Source: Myxococcota bacterium (GTDB taxonomy: Bacteria > Myxococcota_A > UBA9160 > UBA6930). From it: DNA of 64,000 nucleotides. The stretch lies in assembly GCA_965223415.1 (NCBI GenBank), contig OZ245002.1, forward strand, positions 5,056,001-5,120,000. Reading direction: 5' to 3'. The number at the start of each line of letters is the position of its first letter. Position 1 is the first letter of the stretch. Position numbers and translations under genes: made by a program. The notes under the pieces are model-generated. The model had not been told where the DNA came from. It ran no database searches and worked only from the letters and a program-made list of their open reading frames with translations. Shown here piece after piece: positions 4,332 through 19,724 of this stretch.

Positions 4332-4408
4332 TGGTGGCGATGGCTGGACTCGAACCAGCGACCCCCGGCTTATGAAACCAGTGCTCTAACCGACTGAGCT
4401 ACATCGCC
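4332..4408 (-). tRNA. tRNA-Met (CAT), probably elongator
   Basis: GGCGATGTAGCTCAGTCGGTTAGAGCACTGGTTTCATAAGCCGGGGGTCGCTGGTTCGAGTCCAGCCATCGCCACCA folds as a cloverleaf with CAT anticodon, GTTCGA T-loop and encoded CCA; -10-like TAGCTT upstream (4421-4426). Confidence 0.95.
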
Positions 4409-4470: not shown

Positions 4471-5085
4471 TCAGCGGCCGCCCGCGCGGGCGGCCTGATC
4501 TCCGGCTGCGCTCCCGCTCGAGAAGACCTGCTTCTCGAGCGCTTCGACCCGGCTGCGCAGCGCTTCGAGCTCGCCGCGGGCTGCCGCCGGGTCGCTGGCG
4601 GACACCTTGGGGAGCCTGCCGAGCCCACCGGTGACGTGGTGGGCCACGCGCTTCACCAGGTTGTCGAGGCGAGGGATGATCTCGCCCAGGGTTCCCGATT
4701 GCACGAACACCGAGCGGGGGTCGCCGGCGTCCTCGCCCTGGACCTGCACGCAGCGGACGTCCAGGCTGGCGCCCTCTCCGAAGCGGGTGAAGGAACCGTA
4801 GAGCACCCAGCGGGCGCCGGCGGCGCGGCCGGCGCCCTGGGCGGCCTCGAGGTCGGTCGTGGCCTGCTCCGGATCGTCGACCTTGATGACCGCGACGCCC
4901 TTCTCCTGGCCCAGCCGGGAGGCGAGCATCTCCGCGAGGCCGGATCGCAGGTAGTCCCGATCCTCCGTGGCATGCACGACGATCGGGAGGATCGCCACGC
5001 GGGCGCGCGAATCGGCGGCGGCAGCGGTGCCCGCCAGCACGAGGAGCAGGACGGCCGCGGCAGCGATGGCGGACTCTCGTTTCAC
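4471..5085 (-). CDS. Exported protein with TolB-N/CsgG-like alpha/beta domain and C-terminal coiled coil
   Basis: GTG start after GGGGAG; signal peptide; VAILPIVVH...GLAEMLASRL...WVLYGSFTRFGEGASLD pattern. Confidence 0.65.
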   Translation of the reverse strand: MKRESAIAAAAVLLLVLAGTAAAADSRARVAILPIVVHATEDRDYLRSGLAEMLASRLGQEKGVAVIKVDDPEQATTDLEAAQGAGRAAGARWVLYGSFTRFGEGASLDVRCVQVQGEDAGDPRSVFVQSGTLGEIIPRLDNLVKRVAHHVTGGLGRLPKVSASDPAAARGELEALRSRVEALEKQVFSSGSAAGDQAARAGGR

Positions 5086-5192: not shown

Positions 5193-6851
5193 TCAACCAG
5201 ACGCGCCGAGAGGCAGCCGGACGCGGAAGCAGGCGCCCTCGCCGGGCCGGCTGGTGACCTCGATCAGACCGTCGTGCTCGGTCACGATCCGGTGGCAGAT
5301 CATCAGCCCGAGGCCCGTGCCGTGGTCCGGCCCCTTGGTGGTGAAGAAGGGATCGAAGATGCGCTCGAGGTCGTCCTCGCCGATGCCCTCTCCCGCATCG
5401 ACCACCTCGATGGTCGCGCCGTCCCCCAGAGCCGGCCCACCGGGCTCGATGCGGATGCGAACGGCCTCGCCCTCGGGGCTGGCGTGGATCGCGTTGAGGG
5501 TGAGGTTGAGGAGCAGCTGGTGGATCTGTTCGCGGGAGGCCATGAGCTTCGGCGAGGCGGGATCCGCGGTGATCTCGAGGCCCACCCGACTGCGCTCGGC
5601 CTCGGGAGCGACCAGCGTCACGACCTCGCTGGCAATGGCCCCGAGATCGCACGCCGAGCGCTTCGCCGCGCCGCTGTCCTCCCGGCCCAGACGGCTCATC
5701 GTCGCCACCAGCCCGCGAATGCGCTCCACCTCCGAGCAGGCGAGGCGGTGGTAGCTGCCCCAGAACTCCTCGTCGGCCTCGGTGCGTTTCGCCGGCGCGA
5801 GGCTCAAGAAGGTGTGGATCGAAGTGAGCGGGTTGTTGATCTCGTGGGCCAGCCCGGCCGCCAGCGTGCCCAGGGTGCCGAGGCGGTCAGCGCGCAGCAC
5901 CTGCTGCCGGCTCGACCGCAGGTCCTCCACCAGGCGGGCGTTCTGCAGCGCGATCGCCGCCTGGTGCGCCACCGCGGCGAGCAGCGTGCAATCGCGCGGC
6001 TCGAAGGGCGCCCCACCGCTGCGGTTGTCGACGGCCAGCGCCCCGAGCAGGCCGGCCTTGCCGACGAGTGGAACCACCAGCACGTCGCCCGCGATCTCAG
6101 TGAGCCAATCGCGCATGGGCGCCGGGTAGTCGAGGCAGTGATCGAGGGTGAGCAGGCGCGGCTCGCCGCGGGCCAGCGCATCCAGCAGCTCCGCCGCGTG
6201 CTCGCGGGTGAGCTGATGGCTCTCGAGGAAGGCCGCGGTGGGCACGTCGCTCGGAACGCGCCGATCGAAGACCAGACTCTCGCGGGTGGGGTCGTAGAGC
6301 AGCAGCGCCGCCCCGTCGTAGTGGAGCGTATCGGTCAGGGACGCCACCAGGAGCTCGGTGAGCTTATCGACCGCAAGCTCGCGCGTGATCGTCGCCGCGA
6401 GCTCTCCCACGGTTCGCAGCTCCCGCACCAGCGCCTCGCGCTCGCGGTCCAGCGCGTAGTGCTCGATCGCCCGCTTCAGGGCAACACGCATGTCCTCTGG
6501 CTGCCACGGCTTGGCGATATAGCGGTAGACGGAGCCGTCGTTGATCGCGTGGCTCAGAGTATCCACCGAGCCGTAGGCGGTGACCAGCATGCGCATGGTC
6601 TCCGGCGCCATCTCGCGCACCCGCGAGAGGAACTCGACGCCGGTCATGCCCGGCATCTTCTGATCCGAGAGCACGACGGCGAAGCGCTCGTTCATCAGCC
6701 GCTCGAGCCCCTCCTCGCCGGACGCCGCCGTCACGATGCGGAACTCGCGGCGGAAGGTCAGCTCGAAGACCCGGAGGTTCTCCGACTCGTCGTCCACGTA
6801 GAGGAGCGGGAAGGCACGTAGATCGACCGGGTGCGGTTGGCTATCCGGCAT
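5193..6851 (-). CDS. Hybrid histidine kinase (REC-GAF-HisKA-HATPase)
   Basis: LYVDDE...SDQKMPG...KPW receiver; GAF; AHEINNPL; FDPFFTTK...GTGLGL. Confidence 0.92.
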   Translation of the reverse strand: MPDSQPHPVDLRAFPLLYVDDESENLRVFELTFRREFRIVTAASGEEGLERLMNERFAVVLSDQKMPGMTGVEFLSRVREMAPETMRMLVTAYGSVDTLSHAINDGSVYRYIAKPWQPEDMRVALKRAIEHYALDREREALVRELRTVGELAATITRELAVDKLTELLVASLTDTLHYDGAALLLYDPTRESLVFDRRVPSDVPTAAFLESHQLTREHAAELLDALARGEPRLLTLDHCLDYPAPMRDWLTEIAGDVLVVPLVGKAGLLGALAVDNRSGGAPFEPRDCTLLAAVAHQAAIALQNARLVEDLRSSRQQVLRADRLGTLGTLAAGLAHEINNPLTSIHTFLSLAPAKRTEADEEFWGSYHRLACSEVERIRGLVATMSRLGREDSGAAKRSACDLGAIASEVVTLVAPEAERSRVGLEITADPASPKLMASREQIHQLLLNLTLNAIHASPEGEAVRIRIEPGGPALGDGATIEVVDAGEGIGEDDLERIFDPFFTTKGPDHGTGLGLMICHRIVTEHDGLIEVTSRPGEGACFRVRLPLGASG

Positions 6852-9657
6852 CCGCGCCCTCGGCGTCGACCGGGAGCACCACGGTCACGCGGGTGCCCTC
6901 TCCCGGCGTCGAAGCGAGCTCGATCCGGCCACCGTGCTCGCGCACGATGCGATCGGACATGGCCAGGCCGAGCCCGGTGCCCTGCCCCGCCTGCTTCGTG
7001 GTGAAGAACGGCTCGAACAGGCGGGACTGAACGTCCGCTTCGATGCCCGAACCGGTATCCGCCACCCGCACCTCCAGCTCCCCGTCGACGCGCTTTGCCT
7101 GGACGGAGATGGTCCCTTCTTCTCCTTCGAACGCCTCGATGGCGTTCTTGAGCAGGTTGAGGAACACCTGGTTCAGGCCGCCTGGGTCGCCGAAAACCGC
7201 CGGGAGATCCGCCGCGATCTCCACCTCCGTGGCGATGCCCGCCTCGCGCAGCTGATGCCCAAGGAGCTGCAGGGTCGAGCGCAGGCCGGCGCCCACGTCC
7301 ACGATGGCGTGGCCGCTTCGCCCCGGAGCTGCGAAGTCCCGCAGGTCCGCCACGAGCCGCGCCGTCCGGTCGAGGCCTTCGGTGACGATGCCCACCAGCT
7401 CGGCCAGCTCCGAGGCCATGTCCTCGAAGCCCATCTCCCGCTTCTTCCGCTCCAGCTGCAGCAGCTGCACCCGGAGCGTCTGGGGATCGTCCGCATCGAG
7501 CTCGCCGACCCAGGAGACCAGGCCCTGGATATCGTCCGCGTAGGCCCGGAGCGCCGCCAGGGAGTTGCGCGCGAAGTTGAGCGGGTTGTTCACCTCGTGG
7601 GCCACGCCCGCCGAGAGCTCGCCGACGGCCGCCAACCGCTCCGCCTGGACGAGCTGGACCTCCGCCTCCTTCAGCTCCTCGAGGGCCTGGGCGAGCTCCG
7701 CGTTCGACGATTCGAGCGCCGCGTTCTGCTCGCGGAGCTCGAGCTGGAGGGAGCGGATCCGCACCAGCGAGCGCGCCCGGGCCAGGAGCTCGCGGGGGTG
7801 GAAGGGCTTCGTCACGTAGTCGTCCGCTCCGAGCTCCAGCCCCTCGATCTTCATCTCGCGCTCGGCCTTGGAGGTCACCAGCATCACCGGCACCCCGCGC
7901 AGCGCCCCGTCCTGCTTGATCGCGCGACACAGCTCGGTGCCCGACATCTCGGGCATCATTACATCGGTCACGACCAGCTCGGGGGCCTGCTCGCGGACCG
8001 CCTCGAGAGCCTCCAGGCCGTTGCGCGTCGGCCGCACCCGGAACTCGCGACCGAGCAGGAAAGCCAGCAGCCGGCGCATCTCGGCATTGTCCTCGGCGAT
8101 CACGATCTCCGGCGTACCCTCGGCATGCTCCGGAAGCTCGAACACCCACTCGTCGCCGTGCCGGGTCGCCTCCCAGCGGCTCACCGTGTGCTCCACCGCC
8201 GCGAAGCGCCCCTCTCCGGCGTGCTCGAGGTCCATCGAGGTCTCGCTGGCCAGCGCCTCAAAGGACTTGGCTGCGGAGAGAGCGCGATTTCCCCCGGCCT
8301 CGAGCAGTACCTCCTCCTCGGGATCGTCGTCCGCCTCTCCGAGAGGCAGCAGCACGTGCATCTGCGACCCGTGCCCATCGCCCTCGCTCGTCGCCCAGAC
8401 CCGCCCGCCATGCAGCGCGACCAGCTCCTGCACGAGACTGAGCCCGATCCCCGTCCCCTCGTGCTTTCGGGTCGCCGACCCGTCCACCTGGGCAAAGCGA
8501 TCGAACACCCGCGCGAGCTGATGCTCCGGAATGCCGACGCCCGTGTCCTCGACCACGATGTGGACCCCCTCCGCATCGAGGCCCCGCCCGTCGCCGGCGG
8601 CAGCCGGCGCTCCGCGCACCGTGATCCCCCCGGAATCCGTGAACTTGAGCGCGTTCCCGATCAGGTTCACCAGCACCTTCTCGAGCGCATCCGGGTCGAC
8701 ATTCGCCGTGGGCAAGCCGTCGAATCCCTCGGCCCGCAGGTGAAGCCCCTTCCGCTCCGCCATCGGCAAGGCGCCGTCCACGATATCTGCGACCAGCCGC
8801 CTGAGCTCGATTGGCACCCGCCGCACCGACAGCTGCTCACTCTCGATCTTCGCAAGATCCAGCAGGCCATTGATGAGCTTCAGGAGGCGCAGCCCGTTGG
8901 ACTGCATCGTCCGCAACGTCCGGTCGAGCCCGCTGGGAATGTCGCCCATGTCCCCGGATCGCATGGCTTCGATGGGGGCGAGCATGAGGGTGAGCGGCGT
9001 GCGGAGCTCGTGGTGGATGTTGGCGGTGAAGCGGGACTTTGCGCGATCCAGGTCTTCGAGTCGGTCGCGCGCGCATTCGAGTTCGCGCCGCTTCGAGAAG
9101 TCCGAGTAGCGGATCTTCTCAAGGTTCACCGAACTCGCGACAGCGAGTATGAACGCCGAGGACAGAACCAAGCCGTGGAAGACCACCGTCGTGGATCCGG
9201 TCCCGTCGGAGCCCACCGCGACCATCAGGAAGAAGCACAGGCTTGTCGCGCCGCAGACGAGGACGGTCTGCCGGATTGTAACCGGGATGATCACCGGGAA
9301 GGCGCCGAAGAGCAGGACGAGTCCAGAGTAGTAGGGACTTGTGCCCGCGCCCGTGAAGGCGGAGATCGCCACGAGCATCATGCCGATGGATAGCCCCATT
9401 CCGATGCTGGCCACCTCAGGGGCCCTGGATCGGAACGCCCAGTAGAGGCCACCCATCACACCGGCTGTCGCAACACGGATTGGGGCGAAGACGCGCCACA
9501 TCTGGGGCTCGGCGATGGCGTCCAGCGGTATGAACCCCAGCACGATCGCGAGGCCGCAGGGGACGGCGATTCGAAGCGCGGGGGGCATTAACTCCCGGCG
9601 CACGAACTCCCGGTAGTCCGCGAAAGACTCGGCGGTCCTGGGCGGCACGGTCTCCAC
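6841..9657 (-). CDS. Membrane hybrid sensor kinase (multi-TM sensor, HisKA-HATPase, REC, second HisKA-HATPase)
   Basis: About 5-6 hydrophobic helices; HHELRTPL; NLIGNALKFT; VVTDVMMP; AHEVNNPL; two GTG(I/L)GL boxes. Confidence 0.92.
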   Translation of the reverse strand: METVPPRTAESFADYREFVRRELMPPALRIAVPCGLAIVLGFIPLDAIAEPQMWRVFAPIRVATAGVMGGLYWAFRSRAPEVASIGMGLSIGMMLVAISAFTGAGTSPYYSGLVLLFGAFPVIIPVTIRQTVLVCGATSLCFFLMVAVGSDGTGSTTVVFHGLVLSSAFILAVASSVNLEKIRYSDFSKRRELECARDRLEDLDRAKSRFTANIHHELRTPLTLMLAPIEAMRSGDMGDIPSGLDRTLRTMQSNGLRLLKLINGLLDLAKIESEQLSVRRVPIELRRLVADIVDGALPMAERKGLHLRAEGFDGLPTANVDPDALEKVLVNLIGNALKFTDSGGITVRGAPAAAGDGRGLDAEGVHIVVEDTGVGIPEHQLARVFDRFAQVDGSATRKHEGTGIGLSLVQELVALHGGRVWATSEGDGHGSQMHVLLPLGEADDDPEEEVLLEAGGNRALSAAKSFEALASETSMDLEHAGEGRFAAVEHTVSRWEATRHGDEWVFELPEHAEGTPEIVIAEDNAEMRRLLAFLLGREFRVRPTRNGLEALEAVREQAPELVVTDVMMPEMSGTELCRAIKQDGALRGVPVMLVTSKAEREMKIEGLELGADDYVTKPFHPRELLARARSLVRIRSLQLELREQNAALESSNAELAQALEELKEAEVQLVQAERLAAVGELSAGVAHEVNNPLNFARNSLAALRAYADDIQGLVSWVGELDADDPQTLRVQLLQLERKKREMGFEDMASELAELVGIVTEGLDRTARLVADLRDFAAPGRSGHAIVDVGAGLRSTLQLLGHQLREAGIATEVEIAADLPAVFGDPGGLNQVFLNLLKNAIEAFEGEEGTISVQAKRVDGELEVRVADTGSGIEADVQSRLFEPFFTTKQAGQGTGLGLAMSDRIVREHGGRIELASTPGEGTRVTVVLPVDAEGADAG

Positions 9658-9664
9658 GGAAGCT

Positions 9665-9692
9665 GTATCGGCCCCCGTGGGGGGCTCCTTGA
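9665..9692 (-). promoter_or_regulatory. Candidate sigma28 (FliA-type) promoter
   Basis: TCAA-N16-GCCGATAC ending 7 nt before the GTG of the sensor kinase. Confidence 0.5.
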
Positions 9693-9696
9693 TGCG

Positions 9697-11955
9697 CTAC
9701 TCCGAGGCCCCTTCCCGTGGCGCTGAAACCACCAATAAGGCCGGCAAGAGGAGGAGATCCGCGAGAAGGCAGACCCCCATGATCGCCGCTGTAACCAAGC
9801 CAAGGTTCCGAACGAGGTTGAAGCCCGAGAGCCCCAGCACTCCAAACCCCACCGCGATGACCACCGTAGTTCCCAACACTGGCGGGAGAGTCCGCCGCAG
9901 AGCGCCGGCGACCGCCTCCGCCGCTGGAAGCGTGCTTCTGTGTCGCCGATACTCCACAACCACGTGAATCGTGTCGTCAATTGCGATTCCAAGGGCAAGG
10001 GTGCCCAAGAGGACGGTGCCCGCGTCGAGAGGGATGTCGAGTAGGCCCATCAGCCCGAATGCGAACACCACTGGCGTCGCGTTCGGAATGAGTGAGACGA
10101 CCGTCATTCGAACGGACCGCAGAAGGATGCCTAGGACGATCCCAACCGCGACGAACGCGAACACCAGGCCGCGCAGCTGGCCCCTCTCGATCTCCCGCTC
10201 AGAACGCGCGTACTCGTGCATGATGCCAGTGACCTGTGCATCGAAGTCCGCCGGGCCGAAATCCTCCCACCACCCCTCCGACGCACGAGCGACCCGAAGG
10301 AGATCGTTAGAACCGTTGTTATCCACACGCAGCAGCAAGTTCGCCTGCCGTCGATCCGCAGTGACGACGTCTCCCATGTAGTCAACCGACTCGAGCAGCA
10401 GCAGGTACTGCTCGATTCCGTTCTCATCGACGGGTAGAGGGTATTGGGAGTCGCCGAGGAACCCACCGTGGAGTTGTCGTAGGGGGTCCGCTAGGGAAAC
10501 TGCCTTGCCCACTTCGGGCAGTTGACCGAGAAAGTGCTGGAGCCCATCTATAGAGCGCAACACGTCCGGATCTGTGACTCGCCGGTCCCCCTCCGAGGAG
10601 ATCACAACGTTCATGGGGCTAATTCCCGAGAGACGGGTCCGAATCTCGCGGTAGTCCTTTCGAGGAGTGCTGTCCTCCTGGAAGTAGAGAATCACGTCGG
10701 TTTCGATGTCGAGCCGCGAGATGCCAACTCCGACTACGAGGAGGATTGCAGCCCAACCGGCCAGGATGGCTACCGGACGCGTCAAGAGCGAGCGAAGGTG
10801 GCCCACGATCGCGTCGCGGGCCCGAACGACGAGGACCGACCGGACCTCGGCCACTGGGAATAGAGCCAGAAGCGCGGGCGCTAGCGAAATCGCAGCTGCG
10901 AGCACGAACAGACATCCCAACGCTCCGAATGCACCGATCCAGCGGATTACATCAATTCGCACCAAGGTCATCGCCACGAAACCGATCGCCGTCGTGACGC
11001 CCGAGACCACGATTGGGGCAACCACTCGCACGAGCTCCACCTCAATCCGACCCGGGGCCCCCTGGGCGGCCGCGATTGCCGAGACCACATGAAGTGAATA
11101 TGCACAGCCCAGCGCGAGCAGCACCGATGGAAGAACAACTGTGCTGATTGTGAGAGGAACCCCCAGCGCACCCATTGTGCCCAGCGTCAGGAGGCTCCCC
11201 ACTGATCCGACGGCAAGAACGACGATTGGTACCCGAGCGCCCCTCAATGGAAGCATGAGTAGAAGGCCGATGATCAAGCCGGTGACCGGGAAGAAGATCG
11301 CCAGCTCACTTCGCATCAAGCGATTGGTCTCAGTGCGGAAGACGGGCCCCCCTGAGATCCAGGCTGAGCCGAGTCGCTTAGATGATTCCCGAACGGCTTC
11401 GACGACGCGTTGATCGTTCTCGGCGCCGATGTCGTCCATTCGAACGACCACGGCGAAGGTCCGTCCATCCTCTGAGACCACTGCCTTGGGAAGGACCCGG
11501 TCTTTCTCGATCTTTGCGACGGCGCCAGCAACCTCTCCATCCGAGGCGCCTGGTTCGATCGCGGGATCCAGCTCGAGTGTTCCGTCAGGCCCCGCGTGGA
11601 CGAGAGGCATGGTGCTGATGCTGTCGACGCGGCGAACACCGGCAACCTCCTCGAGATCTGCCGAGATAGAGGCGATAGTGCGAACCACTTCCGGGTCGAA
11701 GGCGTGCTGCGCCTCGGCCGCAAGCACGACGATCTCGTCGCCACCGAAGGTGTTGGTGGAGGACTCGTAGAACCTCCACGATGGGCTCTCGCGACTCAGC
11801 ACGCTGTCCGTCGAGGTTTCGATGTTCAATCGCGCGAGCCCTGCCAGGGAGGCCACTGCGAGGATGGCCCATACCAAGAGAGCTGTGCGTGGGTGCCGGA
11901 GGGATCCAACCGCCGTTCGCTCAAGCGGCCGGGACGTGAGGTCACGAAGCTGCAG
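9697..11955 (-). CDS. MMPL/RND-family lipid exporter
   Basis: Two repeats of TM + periplasmic domain + TM bundle; GVTTAIGF, GIAIDDTIH, GFGVLGLSGF. Start uncertain: TTG at 11877, or CTG at 11955 which restores the RHP + TM1 N-terminus. Confidence 0.85.
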   Translation of the reverse strand: MQLRDLTSRPLERTAVGSLRHPRTALLVWAILAVASLAGLARLNIETSTDSVLSRESPSWRFYESSTNTFGGDEIVVLAAEAQHAFDPEVVRTIASISADLEEVAGVRRVDSISTMPLVHAGPDGTLELDPAIEPGASDGEVAGAVAKIEKDRVLPKAVVSEDGRTFAVVVRMDDIGAENDQRVVEAVRESSKRLGSAWISGGPVFRTETNRLMRSELAIFFPVTGLIIGLLLMLPLRGARVPIVVLAVGSVGSLLTLGTMGALGVPLTISTVVLPSVLLALGCAYSLHVVSAIAAAQGAPGRIEVELVRVVAPIVVSGVTTAIGFVAMTLVRIDVIRWIGAFGALGCLFVLAAAISLAPALLALFPVAEVRSVLVVRARDAIVGHLRSLLTRPVAILAGWAAILLVVGVGISRLDIETDVILYFQEDSTPRKDYREIRTRLSGISPMNVVISSEGDRRVTDPDVLRSIDGLQHFLGQLPEVGKAVSLADPLRQLHGGFLGDSQYPLPVDENGIEQYLLLLESVDYMGDVVTADRRQANLLLRVDNNGSNDLLRVARASEGWWEDFGPADFDAQVTGIMHEYARSEREIERGQLRGLVFAFVAVGIVLGILLRSVRMTVVSLIPNATPVVFAFGLMGLLDIPLDAGTVLLGTLALGIAIDDTIHVVVEYRRHRSTLPAAEAVAGALRRTLPPVLGTTVVIAVGFGVLGLSGFNLVRNLGLVTAAIMGVCLLADLLLLPALLVVSAPREGASE

Positions 11956-11958
11956 GGG

Positions 11959-14409
11959 CTACGCCCTCGTCGCTGAAGCCACGATTGCCTGCTGCGGCGA
12001 GCCCAGGCAGGGAAAGACCGACTCGACTCGCAGGCCGGCGCTCTCGATCAGCTTTCGGAAAGCGATCTCGCTCCAGAACTGAAACGCGCCGGCTTCCTCC
12101 AGATCCATCAACTTCGCACCGTCGTTGAGGAACGCCCGAGCCGCTTGCATGATCTGCGCGCGGGATGCGCCGGGAAAGAAGGAATCGAACTGGCCATCTT
12201 CGACGCCAGCGAGAGCGCGCGTGTAGATCTGCGAGATGTCCGCATCGGGCCTCATTGTTGAGAGAACCAACCTCCCTTGCGGGCGCAGAACTCGCGCGAT
12301 CTCGGTCAGGACAGACTTCGCATCCGGTACATAGCTGAGCAGGAGAGATGCGAGCACTCGATCGCAGGAACCGCTGGCAAGGGGAAGGACCGAACGCTTG
12401 AGGTCGGCCTGGACGAACTCCACACTCAAGCTCGCATCTCGGCGAATCTGGGTCTTCACGTGTTGGAGGGCACCCATCACGAGGTCGCACTCAACGAGCT
12501 GCAGGGCGGGCTGGGATCCAGCCCGACGCAGGTAGCTCGGAAACGCGCCCGTTCCCGAGCCGAGATCGAGAACGCGATTGCCTGGGGTCAGCTGGAGATC
12601 CGCGACCTGGCGCTGCATAAACTCCTGGTAGTCGTGTGTCGCGTTCAGAAGCGCGATCCCCATACCAGAGGATCTTCCAAGCAAGTAGTCCGCCCAGAAG
12701 TCGGCGACATTCGGCTCGGCCTGCCCGAGGCGAGACCGCTCGGCCGCACTCCGCTTCGCAAGATCCCGAATGCTGGGCGCCCGTCCGCTGATGCGGCGCT
12801 CCAACGCAGCCTGGCTCACCTCTTCAGCGATGAGCTGGAAGACGTCGAGCGCCTCTTGGCTAGAGCGAAGCTGGTGACCCGTAGGCACCTCTAGGAGCTT
12901 GCGGTTGCCAGCACTCCCGCAGGCGAGGACCTCCCGCACGCGATCGAGCTCCATCCACGCGTCGAACCTCCCGTGGAGCCACGTGATGGGCACGAAGATC
13001 TGGGAGAAATCCCGACGCGAATCGGAAAGGAAGGAGAGCCCTTGTTGCGTTGCATCCACCCCCGCATAGTCGATATCGACGGTGACCCCGAGGATCTCCT
13101 GGCGGCCAAACGACAACCCCTTTTCGATGCCGCCCATGTAGTCGACGCCACCAGATATGACGCGCATCATCGACTGAATATCGGCCGTACCTACCACGCA
13201 GATCCACGCATCGACGGTCTCGCCGCGATCCGAAGCCAAATACGCTCTACCTTCGATCGAGGACGCGCTAAACGTGACCAGCGCCAGCTTCTCGCAGCCG
13301 CGTTCACGGCGCAGGAAGTTGGCTGCAGCACGGATGTCCTTGACCCCCTGGGAAAAGGTGAACCGGTCGTGCTCCCGACCTGGCTGCAAGCAATCGGGGT
13401 CCCTGTAGGACTCGCCGCGCTTTCGTACACCGTCGAATCGAAGGATAGAAACGGGCTGGCTCGCCGCCCGAAACGTCGCCAGGAGAGTCCTGGCGAGCGG
13501 CATTAGGGTCTCCTTTGTTCGGCCCCATGCCGGCGGGATCACCACACCGAGGCGTCCCTCCCCCCTCCCCCACTCGTCCGCGATGCCTCGAATGGGCTCG
13601 CGGTCCTCGGTCTCGAACTCCACAAGATGGATCTTTGTGTCACGAGTTCCGAGCCCCGCTCGGCGCAGCAGCTGCTCAGTTGCACTCGCGGTTGCTCCCG
13701 ATGCCACAGCCAACTTCCGCAATAGCCGCTGGCTTGAAGAGCGCTCAACGATCGCGTCCTTTCGATCCACACCGACCGCCGGAGCGTAGGGTACGGGCGA
13801 TGTCTTGAGGTGTATCCGCGACCAGCCGTTCGCATCCCGAGTTACGCCCGCGACCCTGGCGAAGCGGTGGCTGTGGCGGGATGCACTCGTGTCGAACTCG
13901 AGTTCGAAGGAGGCTCCCGATTGCGGGGCACTCGTCGCTTCCGCGCGAATCGCCAACCCCGCTTCCGAGGAGTCAAGGATCTCGCCTCGGAACGCTTTTC
14001 CTTCGCCTCGCAAGACGACGCGTTCCCCGGACAGGTCCCCCGACCGCAGCCGCTCACGCCGCTCGTTCTGAAACACGACATCGGGAACCCGCACGATCAA
14101 CGGCGATTCGGATTCAGGCGACAGCGGATCAGCCGAGAAGAAGTACCGGTTGCCGTTCAGTTCGAAGCGCAGGAAGATCTGCTCCCGTCCGGTCGCGGCG
14201 AAGTTCTCCGTCGCCAGCACCAGCTCTCCGCCCCGGATCTCCTCGATCGTCGCGGACTCGGGGCGTACCGCCCTGTTCATCCCGCGATAGAGGGTCGCTC
14301 GCTCGCTGGCAGCCTGCTCCAACAGGGCGCGAACGCCCGACACATCCCGCATGCCCTCAGGATGAAGCCGAGCAAGATCGTCCACACCGATCAACTGCGA
14401 AACCGCCAC
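11959..14409 (-). CDS. Fusion of YcgR-like PilZ, LuxD-like acyl hydrolase/transferase and class I SAM methyltransferase
   Basis: RRERLR and DSSEAG (PilZ motifs); LRFDG..RGES, TFSAS, RFDAW, TGHQL (LuxD-like triad pattern); VLDLGSGTG and EIARVLRPQG (methyltransferase). Confidence 0.8.
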   Translation of the reverse strand: MAVSQLIGVDDLARLHPEGMRDVSGVRALLEQAASERATLYRGMNRAVRPESATIEEIRGGELVLATENFAATGREQIFLRFELNGNRYFFSADPLSPESESPLIVRVPDVVFQNERRERLRSGDLSGERVVLRGEGKAFRGEILDSSEAGLAIRAEATSAPQSGASFELEFDTSASRHSHRFARVAGVTRDANGWSRIHLKTSPVPYAPAVGVDRKDAIVERSSSQRLLRKLAVASGATASATEQLLRRAGLGTRDTKIHLVEFETEDREPIRGIADEWGRGEGRLGVVIPPAWGRTKETLMPLARTLLATFRAASQPVSILRFDGVRKRGESYRDPDCLQPGREHDRFTFSQGVKDIRAAANFLRRERGCEKLALVTFSASSIEGRAYLASDRGETVDAWICVVGTADIQSMMRVISGGVDYMGGIEKGLSFGRQEILGVTVDIDYAGVDATQQGLSFLSDSRRDFSQIFVPITWLHGRFDAWMELDRVREVLACGSAGNRKLLEVPTGHQLRSSQEALDVFQLIAEEVSQAALERRISGRAPSIRDLAKRSAAERSRLGQAEPNVADFWADYLLGRSSGMGIALLNATHDYQEFMQRQVADLQLTPGNRVLDLGSGTGAFPSYLRRAGSQPALQLVECDLVMGALQHVKTQIRRDASLSVEFVQADLKRSVLPLASGSCDRVLASLLLSYVPDAKSVLTEIARVLRPQGRLVLSTMRPDADISQIYTRALAGVEDGQFDSFFPGASRAQIMQAARAFLNDGAKLMDLEEAGAFQFWSEIAFRKLIESAGLRVESVFPCLGSPQQAIVASATRA

Positions 14410-14446
14410 GCCGCCGCCTCTTCTCTTGCCGTTCGCCAGCCCCGAG

Positions 14447-15352
14447 TCACGCGAAACGAGGAGTGAGTCCTATAGCTCTCCACAACGGCAGGGTTCTACG
14501 AGACACCATCTGAAGCTGCACGAGGAACGGGAGAATCCGCGACGTGCAGTCCCGGAAGAACTCGCGGCGGTGTACCGAGCGGCGCGAAGAACGCCACAAG
14601 CGCCACGCTTCACTACTGTCGGAGGCTAGGCCGGATCGGACGTAGACCTGCGGTGGGTTCATGGCTTCAAAGACAAGAAGCAGGACGGCAGGTGCGGCCA
14701 GGTCGATTGCTGCTCGTCGAACCGCACCAGAACTCTCATAGGCATCGTGGAGGTTCATTCTGGCATAGTCCATGTGCCGCGCCTCCTCCATGCGATGAAT
14801 CATGCCAACGTCCCGAAGGGTCGGATGCTTGGCGCCGAGCTCGAGAGCGCGGGCAATGAACGTGTCCGTGATGTCCTCAACCGCGAGCATCCCTAGGAAG
14901 TAGAGCGCGTTCCCTTTGGCAACGGCCCACTCCCCTACCCGTTCGACCGCACCATGGAAACCGGCAGGTGGGTACGGACCTACGCCGATCTCGCTCACGA
15001 GCCGAGAAAACATGCGGCTGTGGCGAGCCTCTTCCTCGATGACCTTCAGCCGGTATCGGGTCACGTCCGCAACCGGGTCGGAGTTCCGAACCAAGCGGGC
15101 CAAGGCCTGATTCAGGACGCCCTCGAAGCGGATGAATGACGAGAACATCGCGGCCGTCTCATGGAGTGCGAGCTCGGCCTTCTGGGCCTCGGAGAGGCGA
15201 TCGAACTCGGGCGTCCCAAACAGGCTCAGCGCCTCGTCAGGGAGGAGGGGGGGCGCGCCGCGGAACGGGACGCCCCACTCAACAGCCTCGTCCGGATCGA
15301 TGAAGTTCCTGACCGAGGCGCTCTCGAGCTTCTTGAGCCGACTGACATCCAT
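14447..15352 (-). CDS. AurF-family (ferritin-like) diiron oxygenase
   Basis: Paired ExxH motifs: FE...EEEARHSRMF...VED...HRMEEARH; LSLFGTPEFDRLSEAQK N-terminal pattern. Confidence 0.85.
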   Translation of the reverse strand: MDVSRLKKLESASVRNFIDPDEAVEWGVPFRGAPPLLPDEALSLFGTPEFDRLSEAQKAELALHETAAMFSSFIRFEGVLNQALARLVRNSDPVADVTRYRLKVIEEEARHSRMFSRLVSEIGVGPYPPAGFHGAVERVGEWAVAKGNALYFLGMLAVEDITDTFIARALELGAKHPTLRDVGMIHRMEEARHMDYARMNLHDAYESSGAVRRAAIDLAAPAVLLLVFEAMNPPQVYVRSGLASDSSEAWRLWRSSRRSVHRREFFRDCTSRILPFLVQLQMVSRRTLPLWRAIGLTPRFA

Positions 15353-15591
15353 GTGTGGTCGGGAATCCTGGGCTAGGGCGATCCTGAAGAGCTCAAGAGT
15401 AACGGCAAAACGCGGTTTTAGACCAAAGAACTGCCGATTCGTGAGATGGGGCGAATCGACTACAGGCGCTGGCGAGATTAACCCGTTTAGGGTGCCATAC
15501 TACACCCACATATTGCCCCGTGGGAAGCGTAAGCGCGCCCGTGCGAGCGATTCTGGGCACAAGTGGACGCTCCCGGACAGGCCAGAAGGCC

Positions 15592-16596
15592 CTAAGGCGA
15601 GCCCGATATCTGTCTCGCCTTGACCCCCGCTTCACGAAGGAGCCGGACCGAAACGTCTCCGAGCGGATAGGCGATATCGAAAACCACCTCCGCGATCCCC
15701 GAATTGATGATCATCTTGGTGCAGAGCAGACACGGGCAGAAGGTCGAGTAGAGTGTCGCCCCCCGGACCTGGACCCCGTGATACGCGCTCTGGGTAATCG
15801 CGTTCTCCTCGGCGTGGGAGCAGACGCATTCGCCGAGGTCTTTGCCCCCCGGCCCGAAGTCGTTGCAGCGGGGACAGCCACCTTCGTTGCAGTTCGTGGT
15901 GCCGCGAGGAGTCCCGTTGTAGCCGGTGGCGATGATGCGGCGGTCGATCGTGAGGACGGCGGCCACCTTGCGTTTCACGCAGTTGCTACGAGTGGCCACG
16001 ACGCGGGCGATGCTCATAAAGTACTCGTCCCAGTCGGGTCGCCGAAAGAACTGGTTGCCCCGAAGAAGGCTCTGGATCGCGGCGTGAAGCTCAGCGAGAT
16101 CCCCATCGTTTCTGAGGGTGTGGTCGGCAAGGTCGCGGACGCCAAGGAGCTGCTGGCTCGCTGGATCGGGACTGGCCAGCTCAGATCCCTCCAGGCGACG
16201 CAGCTCTTCCAGGGTGTGAGGATCACCGGAGCGGCCCCGCGTTCTCAGTCGTTCGAAACGGATGGATTCATCAGCGTCCACCCAGATAAGGCGGAAATCC
16301 GACGCTAGCTCACGGAGAGCATCCACTTCCGCGGGATGACGGATCGAGTCGACCACGTAGTTGTGATGCGGCTCGAGGTAGGTCATCAGGCGACGCGCTA
16401 GGGCGCCTTCACCCTCCGCTTCGCGCAGAGCCCGCCCCGTTTGGATCATGCGCTCCCGGGTCTCATCCAGCCCCTTGCGAGCAAGTTCCTTGCGGATGAC
16501 GTCGGAGAGTGACCAGGCCGAGAAGCTCCGACCCTCCAGGAAGGACACGACCTCGCCCTTGCCCGCTGCGTAGAGGCCGGACACCCCGATGATCAT
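15592..16596 (-). CDS. P-loop nucleotide kinase-like domain fused to dCMP deaminase
   Basis: IIGVSGLYAAGKG P-loop, DSIRHPAE; RPDWDEYFM...RSNC...TGYNG...HAEENAI...PCLLC zinc motifs; GGGGAG RBS before ATG at 16596. Confidence 0.9.
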   Translation of the reverse strand: MIIGVSGLYAAGKGEVVSFLEGRSFSAWSLSDVIRKELARKGLDETRERMIQTGRALREAEGEGALARRLMTYLEPHHNYVVDSIRHPAEVDALRELASDFRLIWVDADESIRFERLRTRGRSGDPHTLEELRRLEGSELASPDPASQQLLGVRDLADHTLRNDGDLAELHAAIQSLLRGNQFFRRPDWDEYFMSIARVVATRSNCVKRKVAAVLTIDRRIIATGYNGTPRGTTNCNEGGCPRCNDFGPGGKDLGECVCSHAEENAITQSAYHGVQVRGATLYSTFCPCLLCTKMIINSGIAEVVFDIAYPLGDVSVRLLREAGVKARQISGSP

Positions 16597-16694
16597 AGAA
16601 TTGGCTCCCCTGGTCTGATTCGCGATCGGTGCCTGATCTTTGCACCTACGCGGCGCCAAGCCAACACGGTCGTTTCGCCGAAGGCGGCCCCTTA

Positions 16695-19673
16695 CTAGCC
16701 GGCAACACGCCGCCGAATGTCGGCAACGGAAGTTCCGAGCGCAGCCATTCCGAGGCCAGCTGCGGTCTCTTCAGCCTCCCCAAGCTCCTTCAGCGCCTGG
16801 TCGACCTGTGCCCGCCCGCCTAGCGCCAAGCGAACCCGGGCTGAATCGACCAAGGTGTGCGCCCGCCAGACCGGGCATTGCGCCTGGCTTTCCGCTTCAG
16901 CCGCCGACTCCAGCCTGGCAATCGCAGCTTCGAGGTCACCCTCAGCCGCCAGCAGTTTCCCAACGATTCGCTCAACGGTTCCCCACGTCATGACCCCGTA
17001 CCCCGCCATCGGGCGCTGGGACGAGAACGGAGCCAGTGCTTCGCGAAAGCGCGGTGTGTCTTCGGTGACCGAGAACGCAAGGCACACTTCTGCCAGGACA
17101 GTCAGCGTCAGGAGCCAGACGTTGTCGAGCGACAGAAAGGAGATTCCTCCGGCGAGCCCGCGGTAGTCGTTGCGAGCAAGCTGGTCCATCCCCGCTTGCT
17201 CCGCGTACCGGCACCTCACAGCCCTCCACACGACGAAGCCTGGGAATTGATCAACGATTTCTGTGATCGAGGGGACGGCTTCGTTGAAGCGACCCTGGTG
17301 GTACGCGGTTACAACGAACATCGCGCCACTACTGTGAATGAGGTTCGCGTCTCCATAGGGCCCACCAACGCGTGCCATTTCCGCCGAGTGGCGCTCGACA
17401 GCTCCCCAGTCGCCCTCATCGAGCGCAATGCTCGCCCGGTAGAGGACTGGATACCATCGGCTCTCGGGAGTCCCCGGCCTCTTGACGACTGCCTCGAGAC
17501 GCGAGATCTCTCTCTCCCGCTCTACCCGCCTACCAAGCTCTGCGAGAGTAGACGCACGAAAGATCCGCGCGACGATCTCCACCTGACGCTCTGAGGCGTC
17601 GGCGGCCGCGGCGGCCAGTCGTGTGGCAGCGTTTAGGCGCTCGACCACGTCACCCGGCTGCCAGAGGGCCGCGATTCGAAAGGCCTCCACGAAGAGCTTC
17701 GAGCTTCGCTCTCCTGAGGCCGCGGCGGCCCGCGACGCATCTTGAAGCAAGCGCCGCCGCTCCTCGGATGAGCCCGGTTCCCAGTACAGCGCCATGGCGA
17801 GCCGGGCCAGTAGGCGTGCGCGTTCCTCCTTCGCGGATAGAGGCACCTGCGCGAGCGCACGGCGGGTGACCGACAACGCCACCTCATCGACTCGTCCCGC
17901 CTCGAGCGACGTAACGCCGGGAGCCACTGTCAAGGCGGCCTGGCATGCAACCCCCCAATTGCCGCTCTGCTCAGCGATGTCCATGGCCCTGAGCACGGTC
18001 CGCCTCGCGTCCCCTCGATTTCCCGCAGACATCTGTGCGGCTGCAAGGTTGCCCAGCGTGGCGGCTTGCAGCTCGGCCCCTATCGAGTGTTCGCGCATCA
18101 GGGCGAGAGCACGCTGACAGTGCGCGACAGCTTCTGAGAATGCACCGCGCGCGAAGGCCTCGAGTCCGGCCTCGGCGGAGTACCTCATCGCCGGCTCGGG
18201 GCCGCAGGCTGGAATGGCCTCTGAAAAGTGATGTGCAAGCGCGGAAGCGATCTCGGATCGGTCGGATCGTTCCAAGGCCGATGCGACGGCAGAGTGGTGC
18301 TGGACCCGATGGCGCTGCTCGATCGCGGAATAGATCGCATCCCTCACGAGGAGATGCGCGAAGCTCGTGATCCGCCCATGCGGCCCCGGTGATCGGAGGA
18401 GGTCAGCATCGACCGCTGGTTCAAGGTCTCGAGACAAGCTTGCCAGATCGCACCCTAGGACTTCGGCCAGCAGATCGAGATCGACCTCCTGCCCGAGCAC
18501 GGCAGCAACATCCAGGGCGCGCCTCGACTGCGGGGGTAGGCGATCGACGCGATCGATCGCAGCGCCCAGCGCGTTCGACGGCAGGTTGGTTGTATCTTGT
18601 GAGATCGGCCCAGCCAGAAGCTGCGAAAGAAAGAGCGGATTGCCCCCCGAGAGCCGAAACAGCCTCTCGACGTGGTCTCGTGCAGTTCCAACGCCGATCT
18701 GAGTCGCGAACTCCCGCGTCGAGTCGATATCGAGGGGCCCTAGATCGAGTACCGCACAACGGCTCTCGAGGCTCCTCAGAGGCGGAACCAGGTCCGCCGT
18801 CCACTCCGTCTCTGCCCCTCGATAGGCGGCGAGCATTCGAAGCGCACAGGGGCGCATCTCGAAGCACACGAACATCGCCTGCCGAAACGAAGCGCCATCG
18901 GAGCGATGGAGATCGTCGATGACAAGGACCGGCGAGAGTCGATCAGCGGCTTCCCTCCAGAGCTCCGCTGTCTCGTCCAGCGCGGCGAAGTGCGTCGCCG
19001 CGGCCAATCCAGCTCCATCGGAGGCGGACCGGCCCGGACGAGCTAGCCAACCATCGGCCTTCTCGACCAAGGGCGTTTCGCCGGAACTCGAGGCGAAATC
19101 GCGGAGCTCGCGCGCAAGCTGAATCCACGGCCAGAGCGGAGGCGCCCCCGGAGTCTCGGCACAGCGGCCGACGAAGATCGGGGAACCTGATGCGCGGGCT
19201 CGCCTCGCGAACTCGGACCAGAGGCGCGTCTTTCCCACGCCCGGCTCTCCGCGAAGGAGAACCAGCCGAGTCTGCTCGCCCGGTGCGTCCAGCAGCTGCG
19301 CCTCGAGCTGCGCAAGCTCTGCGGACCGGCCGATGAGGGGAGGCCCTGCTTCATTCGGGCCCGAGACGATTTCGACGTCTGTGGCGAAGCGGATCCCTCT
19401 CCCTCGAACTGTTTCGATGAGCCGTGAGTTCTTGGCGTCATCACCGAGTACACGCCGCGCCGAATAGATCGCCTGAGAGACGACGTGGTCCGAGACGTGT
19501 ACCCCTTTCCAAACCTCCGCGAGCAGCTCAGACCGAGTGACGATCCGACCCCGAGACCGGGCTAGGTAGAGAACTACGTCGAGGACTCGTCGCTCGACGG
19601 GAACTAGCTTGGATTCGCGGCGAAGCTGGCCAGCGAAGTCGTCGATCTCGAAATCAAGGAAGCGATACAGCAT
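16695..19673 (-). CDS. Winged-helix (OmpR/CadC-type) + AAA/STAND ATPase + TPR-like regulator
   Basis: N-terminal ...IETVRGRGIRF wHTH; Walker A GEPGVGKT; Walker B VIDDLH; SGGNPLFL; helical C-terminus. Confidence 0.85.
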   Translation of the reverse strand: MLYRFLDFEIDDFAGQLRRESKLVPVERRVLDVVLYLARSRGRIVTRSELLAEVWKGVHVSDHVVSQAIYSARRVLGDDAKNSRLIETVRGRGIRFATDVEIVSGPNEAGPPLIGRSAELAQLEAQLLDAPGEQTRLVLLRGEPGVGKTRLWSEFARRARASGSPIFVGRCAETPGAPPLWPWIQLARELRDFASSSGETPLVEKADGWLARPGRSASDGAGLAAATHFAALDETAELWREAADRLSPVLVIDDLHRSDGASFRQAMFVCFEMRPCALRMLAAYRGAETEWTADLVPPLRSLESRCAVLDLGPLDIDSTREFATQIGVGTARDHVERLFRLSGGNPLFLSQLLAGPISQDTTNLPSNALGAAIDRVDRLPPQSRRALDVAAVLGQEVDLDLLAEVLGCDLASLSRDLEPAVDADLLRSPGPHGRITSFAHLLVRDAIYSAIEQRHRVQHHSAVASALERSDRSEIASALAHHFSEAIPACGPEPAMRYSAEAGLEAFARGAFSEAVAHCQRALALMREHSIGAELQAATLGNLAAAQMSAGNRGDARRTVLRAMDIAEQSGNWGVACQAALTVAPGVTSLEAGRVDEVALSVTRRALAQVPLSAKEERARLLARLAMALYWEPGSSEERRRLLQDASRAAAASGERSSKLFVEAFRIAALWQPGDVVERLNAATRLAAAAADASERQVEIVARIFRASTLAELGRRVEREREISRLEAVVKRPGTPESRWYPVLYRASIALDEGDWGAVERHSAEMARVGGPYGDANLIHSSGAMFVVTAYHQGRFNEAVPSITEIVDQFPGFVVWRAVRCRYAEQAGMDQLARNDYRGLAGGISFLSLDNVWLLTLTVLAEVCLAFSVTEDTPRFREALAPFSSQRPMAGYGVMTWGTVERIVGKLLAAEGDLEAAIARLESAAEAESQAQCPVWRAHTLVDSARVRLALGGRAQVDQALKELGEAEETAAGLGMAALGTSVADIRRRVAG

Positions 19674-19697
19674 GGATGAGCCGGCAGAGAGAGTGCA

Positions 19698-19724
19698 GCA
19701 TCGGCCAATCGCGAGGAAACCAAT
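19698..19724 (-). promoter_or_regulatory. Candidate sigma28-type promoter
   Basis: ATTGGTTT-N11-GCCGATGC upstream of the STAND regulator (consensus TAAAGTTT-N11-GCCGATAA). Confidence 0.35.

Follow-up and report, generated by a model that had tools for sequence, protein, structure and literature searches.

A candidate fatty acid methyl ester signalling cluster in a Myxococcota genome, with a PilZ–LuxD-like–methyltransferase fusion beside a PhcS-type sensor kinase

We analysed a window of 64,000 nucleotides (positions 5,056,001 to 5,120,000 of contig OZ245002.1, assembly GCA_965223415.1) from a Myxococcota bacterium whose genome is a single 5.83-Mb contig, focusing on a putative lipid-signalling cluster at 5193..15352. 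In their order on the minus strand, its five genes encode an AurF-like di-metal oxygenase (14447..15352; PF11583, 157 bits); an 816-aa fusion of PilZN/PilZ, a LuxD-like thioesterase and an S-adenosylmethionine (SAM) methyltransferase, the predicted signal synthase (11959..14409); an MMPL/RND transporter (9697..11877; PF03176, 111 bits); a hybrid histidine kinase (HK) with a PhcS-type sensor of six transmembrane helices (6TM), HK1, a receiver (REC) and HK2, the predicted receptor (6841..9657); and a REC(D63)-GAF-HisKA(H336)-HATPase kinase, its domains assigned by Pfam (5193..6851). Between successive open reading frames (ORFs) lie 37, 81 and 39 nt, and the last two overlap by 11 nt. An earlier note, made from the sequence alone, had listed five close-set minus-strand genes here; they are present as described, and Pfam confirmed the types it named (AurF, PilZ/methyltransferase, MMPL, hybrid kinase and REC-GAF kinase), with PilZ and Methyltransf_11 matched in the fusion, and HisKA, two HATPase domains, REC and a weak MASE8 in the hybrid kinase. 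A scan for promoters and terminators gave results at chance level.

In the AlphaFold2 model of the fusion (predicted local distance difference test, 89), two beta domains at the N terminus are followed by an alpha/beta hydrolase and a methyltransferase of class I. The PilZ domain scored 21.4 bits in the whole protein and 24 bits alone (cut-off 22.5), and PF07238 was matched by 39 of 53 members of the fusion family. Motif counts cover the 120 homologues listed of 224 found (38-48% identity, nearly full length). Among these, the PilZ residues R118, R122 and G151 are invariant, D/N146 is found in 120/120 and S148 in 112/120; the fusion contains both the RxxxR and the [D/N]xSxxG motif by which PilZ receptors engage cyclic di-GMP (c-di-GMP). 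With these motifs present, the fusion is predicted to be gated by c-di-GMP, in either direction. Equally invariant are a Ser-Asp-His triad (S381/D483/H512) and the SAM site (D615/G617/G619/D642).

The window's middle domain has no Pfam match of its own, and a single-sequence search of the PDB with it returned no matches. LuxD (1THT) was, however, the best of 20 PDB matches to the profile of the hydrolase domain (E 4.7e-5) and ranked first in a Foldseek search with the fusion model, and PF02273 was the top Atlas cluster in a language-model search. Within the family, PF02273 was matched at E up to 1 by 16 of 65 members (best 4.3e-6), the window's domain not being one of them, and Hydrolase_4 by 50 of 65. 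The domain shares with LuxD, a myristoyl-acyl carrier protein (ACP) thioesterase (PF02273), both the fold and the aligned Ser, Asp and His; in contrast to LuxD, to which it is only about 15% identical, it is fused to PilZ and a methyltransferase, and no lux genes are found among its recurrent neighbours. For the methyltransferase domain, NCBI-type models were matched below their cut-offs only, including BioC (E 2.5e-14) and Mtf2.

That weak BioC match would also fit a different assignment, namely a BioH-like methyl-ester esterase, so that the fusion would both write and erase an ester, or use methylation for transient protection, and c-di-GMP would decide which way the reaction runs. Many homologues are indeed named 'UbiE/pimeloyl-ACP methyl ester carboxylesterase' at JGI, LuxD is followed in the match rankings by arylesterases and feruloyl esterases, and the PhcB-type enzymes that replace the fusion at some loci (see below) come without a hydrolase. 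Nevertheless, searches by profile, fold and language model all rank the acyl-ACP thioesterase LuxD first, and we regard an esterase as distinctly improbable.

The hybrid kinase comprises the 6TM sensor (aa 10-195), HK1 (H216), REC (D565) and HK2 (H687), with the phosphorylation motifs present. Its sensor aligned over 197 columns with that of the Paraburkholderia PhcS-like protein WP_114158448.1 (hhalign 98.2%, E 4.3e-14), i.e. the kinase of a Paraburkholderia graminis operon, which served as the PhcS reference in place of the Ralstonia protein; a hmmsearch of WP_114158448.1 with the window's sensor profile gave 80 bits, while a control membrane protein, a chloride channel of the same locus, gave 0.9% in hhalign. 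On these sequence comparisons, the protein is a PhcS-type membrane sensor kinase. A Foldseek search with the sensor gave no match at E 0.001, and the sensor profile extended by HisKA found HisKA matches only in the PDB. The sensor model is a six-helix module that matches ImcA (Z 16.4) and the membrane anchors of adenylyl cyclases (Z 16.0 and 14.9, AC5 and AC9 types).

The fusion was found in 52 of 151 genomes of the class, with a single match in all but one, and the sensor profile in 64 (61 strongly), including 50 of the 52 fusion-positive genomes; in the window's own 5.8-Mb genome it has only two matches. Among the loci of 51 relatives, the hybrid kinase sensor is present in 44, and the seven others all end within 2.6 kb downstream; MMPL is present in 36, the REC-GAF kinase in 19, a winged helix-turn-helix (wHTH)-AAA-TPR regulator in 19 and AurF in three. 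For the 35 fully flanked loci, the counts are 35 for the kinase, 25 for MMPL, 18 for the REC-GAF kinase, 17 for the regulator and two for AurF. A longer fusion subfamily with extra PilZ domains occurs in 24 genomes of other Myxococcota classes (401 genomes searched outside the class). At these 24 loci, the same kinase comes directly after the fusion in 22; at one it is upstream, and at one it was not seen. The co-location of fusion and kinase is far beyond chance. The genomes being kin, locus counts do not represent independent events. No plasmid record gave more than generic methyltransferase matches (0 of 84 covered 80%), and no relative of the long-type fusion was found among viral contigs.

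The conserved core is therefore not the five-gene set that the earlier note had proposed to find co-localised elsewhere: fusion and kinase do stay together in 35/35 full loci, but all five genes co-occur in only 2/35, AurF is found in 5 of 151 genomes, and MMPL is missing from 10 of the 35 class loci and 23 of the 24 distant ones (seen in one). Co-conservation of all five genes was thus rejected; the core is fusion plus kinase, and AurF belongs to a set of fatty-acyl tailoring genes that stand in for one another.

Further evidence comes from the 11 genomes with a sensor and no fusion match. Four, all of one genus, carry a stand-alone 330-aa methyltransferase and a divergent desaturase before the MMPL and kinase genes; one has a PilZ-methyltransferase with a cyclopropane synthase, an arrangement also found at a sensor locus in each of two fusion-positive genomes; one has the end of a fusion at a contig edge, four loci end before the slot and one has a different kinase. 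In seven loci, three of them with a PilZ domain, the synthase slot is hence occupied by a PhcB-type methyltransferase. Two of the seven substitutes were compared with the PhcB of P. graminis and matched it (E 7e-24 and 1e-33), and at JGI 10 of 55 homologues of one substitute bear the name '3-hydroxypalmitic acid methyl ester biosynthesis protein'. The best plasmid match of that substitute lies in the P. graminis operon, with the order methyltransferase (468 aa), kinase, receiver, receiver. Its methyltransferase has an Arg at position 22, the site mutated in PhcB R22C, and is within the 464-468 aa given for PhcB in the Ralstonia solanacearum species complex (PMC8578825), and its last protein, WP_114158450.1, is among the PhcQ homologues given in PMC6989110 (Fig. 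S1). This phc-like operon (L204:5967-12397) lies on a conjugative plasmid; a cyclopropane synthase gene stands upstream of it, and the phcR position is taken by a gene of 134 aa that encodes a receiver only.

The fusion itself aligns with P. graminis PhcB over 119 columns, i.e. the SAM core only; the N-terminal domains do not align, and the KPxGYxGDY motif of PhcB-type proteins is absent from the fusion. We therefore rejected the fusion as a PhcB orthologue, and since PhcB-type enzymes replace it, a single receptor family is accompanied by either of two methyltransferase synthases that are unrelated to each other, one being the known ester synthase. Likewise, because its synthase is not of the PhcB family, the cluster is not a phc operon. 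The likeness to PhcBSR proposed earlier thus holds for the sensor, which is a PhcS homologue, and for the PhcB-type enzymes at the fusion's place, but not for a five-gene unit. The REC-GAF kinase lies directly 3' of the hybrid kinase and lacks a DNA-binding domain, like the co-operonic PhcR/PhcQ; it is 39% identical to WP_114158450.1 over 156 aa, a match between generic receiver domains that does not imply orthology. It is likely a downstream relay similar to PhcR/PhcQ and LvrB. The three substitutes with PilZ (L187, L196 and L201), fused to the PhcB-type methyltransferase and adjoined by a cyclopropane synthase, are predicted to represent a second, independent type of PilZ-gated synthase at the same receptor.

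Building on what was observed, namely the genes with their motifs, folds and synteny, the homology to PhcS and the replacement by PhcB-type enzymes, we consider it fairly probable that the cluster encodes Phc-like fatty acid methyl ester quorum sensing with a non-PhcB synthase that is likely gated by c-di-GMP; the product, its binding as a ligand and its export are parts that we infer. In the mechanism we propose, the AurF-like enzyme would oxidize the acyl chain, giving a strain-specific form of the signal, the middle domain, given its LuxD fold and intact triad, would hydrolyse acyl-ACP or acyl-coenzyme A, and the SAM domain would methylate the free carboxyl, the job that PhcB does, to give a diffusible ester. 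Binding of c-di-GMP to the PilZ domain, suggested by its motifs, would turn synthesis on or off. The MMPL protein likely moves the lipid product, probably helping a less diffusible form across the envelope. The 6TM domain, homologous to that of PhcS, would bind the ester and signal through HK-REC-HK to the REC-GAF-HK relay. The relay may then feed back on c-di-GMP, here by way of unlinked enzymes and in distant relatives through a linked GGDEF, EAL or HD-GYP gene; at 15 of the 24 distant loci, the gene after the kinase encodes a GGDEF-EAL, REC-EAL or HD-GYP protein. Several loci are next to ketoacyl synthase genes. No description of the PilZ, LuxD and methyltransferase combination was found in the literature covered, which did not extend to subscription journals, and the cluster would represent a means of cell-to-cell signalling not yet described, in uncultured relatives of the myxobacteria.

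A survey of neighbours (48 ORFs chosen from 581 called around the class loci) showed that a tailoring slot upstream of the fusion is filled in 14 of 51 loci, i.e. by AurF, a fatty acid desaturase, a P450 or a radical SAM enzyme in three loci each, and by a cyclopropane synthase or a B12 radical SAM enzyme in one each. All AurF orthologues, in five of 151 genomes, stand beside cluster genes, and E77, E108, H111, E159, H186, E190 and H193, which we take to be the AurF metal ligands, are invariant in 5/5; a search of PDB sequences with the AurF gene gave no useful match. Judging from its sequence and position, the enzyme is likely an accessory tailoring gene acting on the acyl chain, for which the AurF-related CylC enzymes described in PMC8406957 are a precedent. 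The family name AurF, in turn, would fit N-oxidation of an arylamine or other amine, which the fusion would then acylate and N-, O- or C-methylate to a small secondary metabolite, not a fatty acid ester, whose regulator is encoded nearby. Acyl transfer is within the reach of LuxD-type enzymes, and the specificity of the methyltransferase leaves room for a nitrogen-containing product. The genomic context suggests acyl-chain chemistry over arylamine N-oxygenation, and we rate such a metabolite as the least probable of the alternatives.

A comparison with the same-genus genome G017 shows how the receptor and synthase diverge. While HK1, REC and HK2 of the kinase are 86%, 88% and 74% identical, the sensor is only 31% identical, and the domains of the fusion reach 32%, 54% and 38%, no higher than across families; at the position of the window's AurF gene, G017 has a radical SAM gene. 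A conserved kinase core with divergent sensor and synthase is also the pattern of the agr and comQXP pherotype cassettes. Over 45 pairs, sensor identity correlates at 0.79 with the synthase and 0.58 with the cytoplasmic part of the kinase; in the 29 rows where nearest neighbours differ, the sensor tracks the synthase in 11, the cytoplasmic part in two and neither in 16. After thinning to 30, Spearman coefficients of the sensor were 0.52 with the hydrolase, 0.42 with the methyltransferase and 0.22 with its own HK1. The synthase tree places the window together with AurF loci from another family (support 96). It is tentatively possible, albeit somewhat doubtful, that ester quorum sensing is widespread in Myxococcota and that its synthase is itself the c-di-GMP receptor, closing a loop of signal, kinase, c-di-GMP and synthase, with dialects arising by swaps of tailoring gene, synthase and 6TM domain as in agr and comQXP. 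Phc signalling would in that case be a single branch within a far larger family of signalling by lipid esters.

The block at 9700-19700 has a GC content of 0.634 compared with 0.71 for the genome, where only 4 of 583 10-kb windows are at or below 0.645; this comparison rests on 10-kb windows, and a genome-wide percentile of GC at third codon positions (GC3) was discarded for an ORF set with shadow ORFs. The block contains the MMPL, fusion, AurF, dCMP deaminase and wHTH-AAA-TPR regulator genes, all syntenic in relatives, and looks like an allelic replacement from a lower-GC donor.

Co-divergence of sensor and synthase within a genus is also relevant to a further possibility, in which the enzymes make a methylated and modified lipid kept in the cell's own envelope and the kinase senses a private homeostatic or developmental cue. 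MMPL, the LolA-like genes of four class loci and DUF1302, also among the neighbours, belong to envelope lipid trafficking, membrane lipids are the usual substrates of cyclopropane synthases and desaturases, and the phospholipid N-methyltransferase 8YS9 is among the fold matches of the fusion. A private cue, however, gives no reason for this co-divergence, and PhcS homology, the replacement of the fusion by PhcB-type enzymes and the absence of MMPL from almost all distant loci speak against it. Overall, we hold this explanation to be unlikely.

Several observations nevertheless weigh against ester quorum sensing as favoured here. The best structural matches of the methyltransferase are sugar O- and N-methyltransferases, and since its likeness to PhcB is confined to a generic SAM core, carboxyl methylation is a step that we only infer. 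The four loci with a stand-alone PhcB-type enzyme belong to one genus and one clade, so the seven substitutions reflect around two or three replacement events. The 6TM sensor family is also found on a GGDEF protein and on proteins of genomes without a synthase, and PhcS homology therefore does not fix the ligand. No c-di-GMP enzyme was found at any of the 51 class loci. Kinship and sequence saturation inflate the correlations between sensor and synthase. Finally, two features argue against a clean swap: the nearest relative of the window's sensor is only 36% identical, and the low-GC block extends no further than the boundary between the MMPL and kinase genes. Its GC3 is 0.70-0.75, against a near-typical 0.84 in the sensor, which may therefore have been acquired separately from the present synthase.

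Among known systems, phcBSRQ of Ralstonia, Cupriavidus and Paraburkholderia, which uses the methyl ester of 3-hydroxymyristic or 3-hydroxypalmitic acid (3-OH MAME / 3-OH PAME), shares the homologous transmembrane sensor, the order synthase-sensor-receiver, a PhcQ-like receiver protein and PhcB-type enzymes that interchange with the fusion. In contrast, the synthase here is a PilZ-LuxD-methyltransferase fusion unrelated to PhcB outside the SAM core, the receptor is HK-REC-HK rather than a simple HK, the partner contains a GAF domain, and MMPL and swappable tailoring genes are added. Phc has the LysR output regulator PhcA; the recurrent neighbour in our loci is instead the wHTH-AAA-TPR regulator. 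The diffusible signal factor systems of Xanthomonas and Burkholderia (RpfF/RpfC/RpfG, RpfR) likewise combine a fatty-acid signal, a membrane hybrid kinase and c-di-GMP coupling (PMC13220807), the last resembling the c-di-GMP turnover genes beside the kinase in 15 of 24 distant loci; here, however, the predicted c-di-GMP receptor is part of the synthase, to which a methyltransferase is also fused, and none of the five proteins has the crotonase-fold domain of RpfF. The HK-REC-HK and REC-HK architecture is shared with LvrA/LvrB of Leptospira, a pair encoded in one operon (PMC5863495), from which the window's kinases differ by a 6TM sensor instead of the cytoplasmic PAS of LvrA and by the GAF insert; the LvrAB NCBIfam scores are far under cut-off (283.5 bits versus 1200 and 103.7 versus 500). 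As for the six-helix sensor model, adenylyl-cyclase 6TM anchors are related to CqsS, whose ligand is lipophilic, according to PMC4821796. The likeness to these anchors is based on the structure model; in contrast to CqsS/LqsS systems, the cluster has no CqsA-type synthase.

Phc ester signalling has been described from a few betaproteobacteria. If our reading is true, it would also exist in a phylum of social predators, where a synthase with another origin would serve it. The fusion would also be the first signal synthase gated directly by c-di-GMP, none having been found in the literature searched. Natural triples of synthase, tailoring enzyme and receptor would be a source of new signal molecules and a means of mapping the ligand specificity of PhcS-type 6TM receptors, and every step can be tested in E. 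coli.

The sensor family shows additional variation. Two or more sensor loci per genome were found in G140 (L198, L079; apparently broken by stops or frameshifts), G070 (L196) and G137 (L197), and at L157 several additional genes with the sensor domain stand side by side. In a kinase variant (L155:9642-12356), the second HK is replaced by HD-GYP, which would place c-di-GMP hydrolysis on the receptor itself. Outside the window, G000:C1:3015685-3016890 (minus strand) encodes a protein of about 400 aa with a 6TM domain of the sensor family (57 bits) and the best-scoring GGDEF of the 22 in this genome; it could link a related lipid to c-di-GMP and is a candidate feedback enzyme. Weak matches of similar size to this protein occur in three genomes without a synthase.

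Upstream of the five genes and on the same strand, Pfam identified the wHTH-AAA-TPR transcription regulator (16695..19673) and a kinase-like AAA and dCMP deaminase protein (15592..16659), a syntenic neighbour. Homologues of the regulator are found up- or downstream of the cluster in either orientation, and also at the four loci with a stand-alone PhcB-type enzyme; it is a probable member of the system, as a candidate output or local regulator. The AAA and dCMP deaminase gene is found at 17 of 51 class loci and 0 of 24 distant loci, and matched an anti-phage dCTP deaminase model weakly (126 bits, cut-off 400). Being 62-72% identical in most relatives, it is more likely a housekeeping gene and probably not part of the system. 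On the other side, a tRNA with a CAT anticodon (4332-4408, minus strand) lies just 3' of the cluster; a repeat search gave nothing meaningful, and the tRNA has no flanking repeat. Between them, 4471-5085 (minus strand) encodes a secreted-looking protein of about 200 aa without a Pfam match, homologues of which come after the REC-GAF kinase in 18 loci, and which is probably a conserved chromosomal neighbour.

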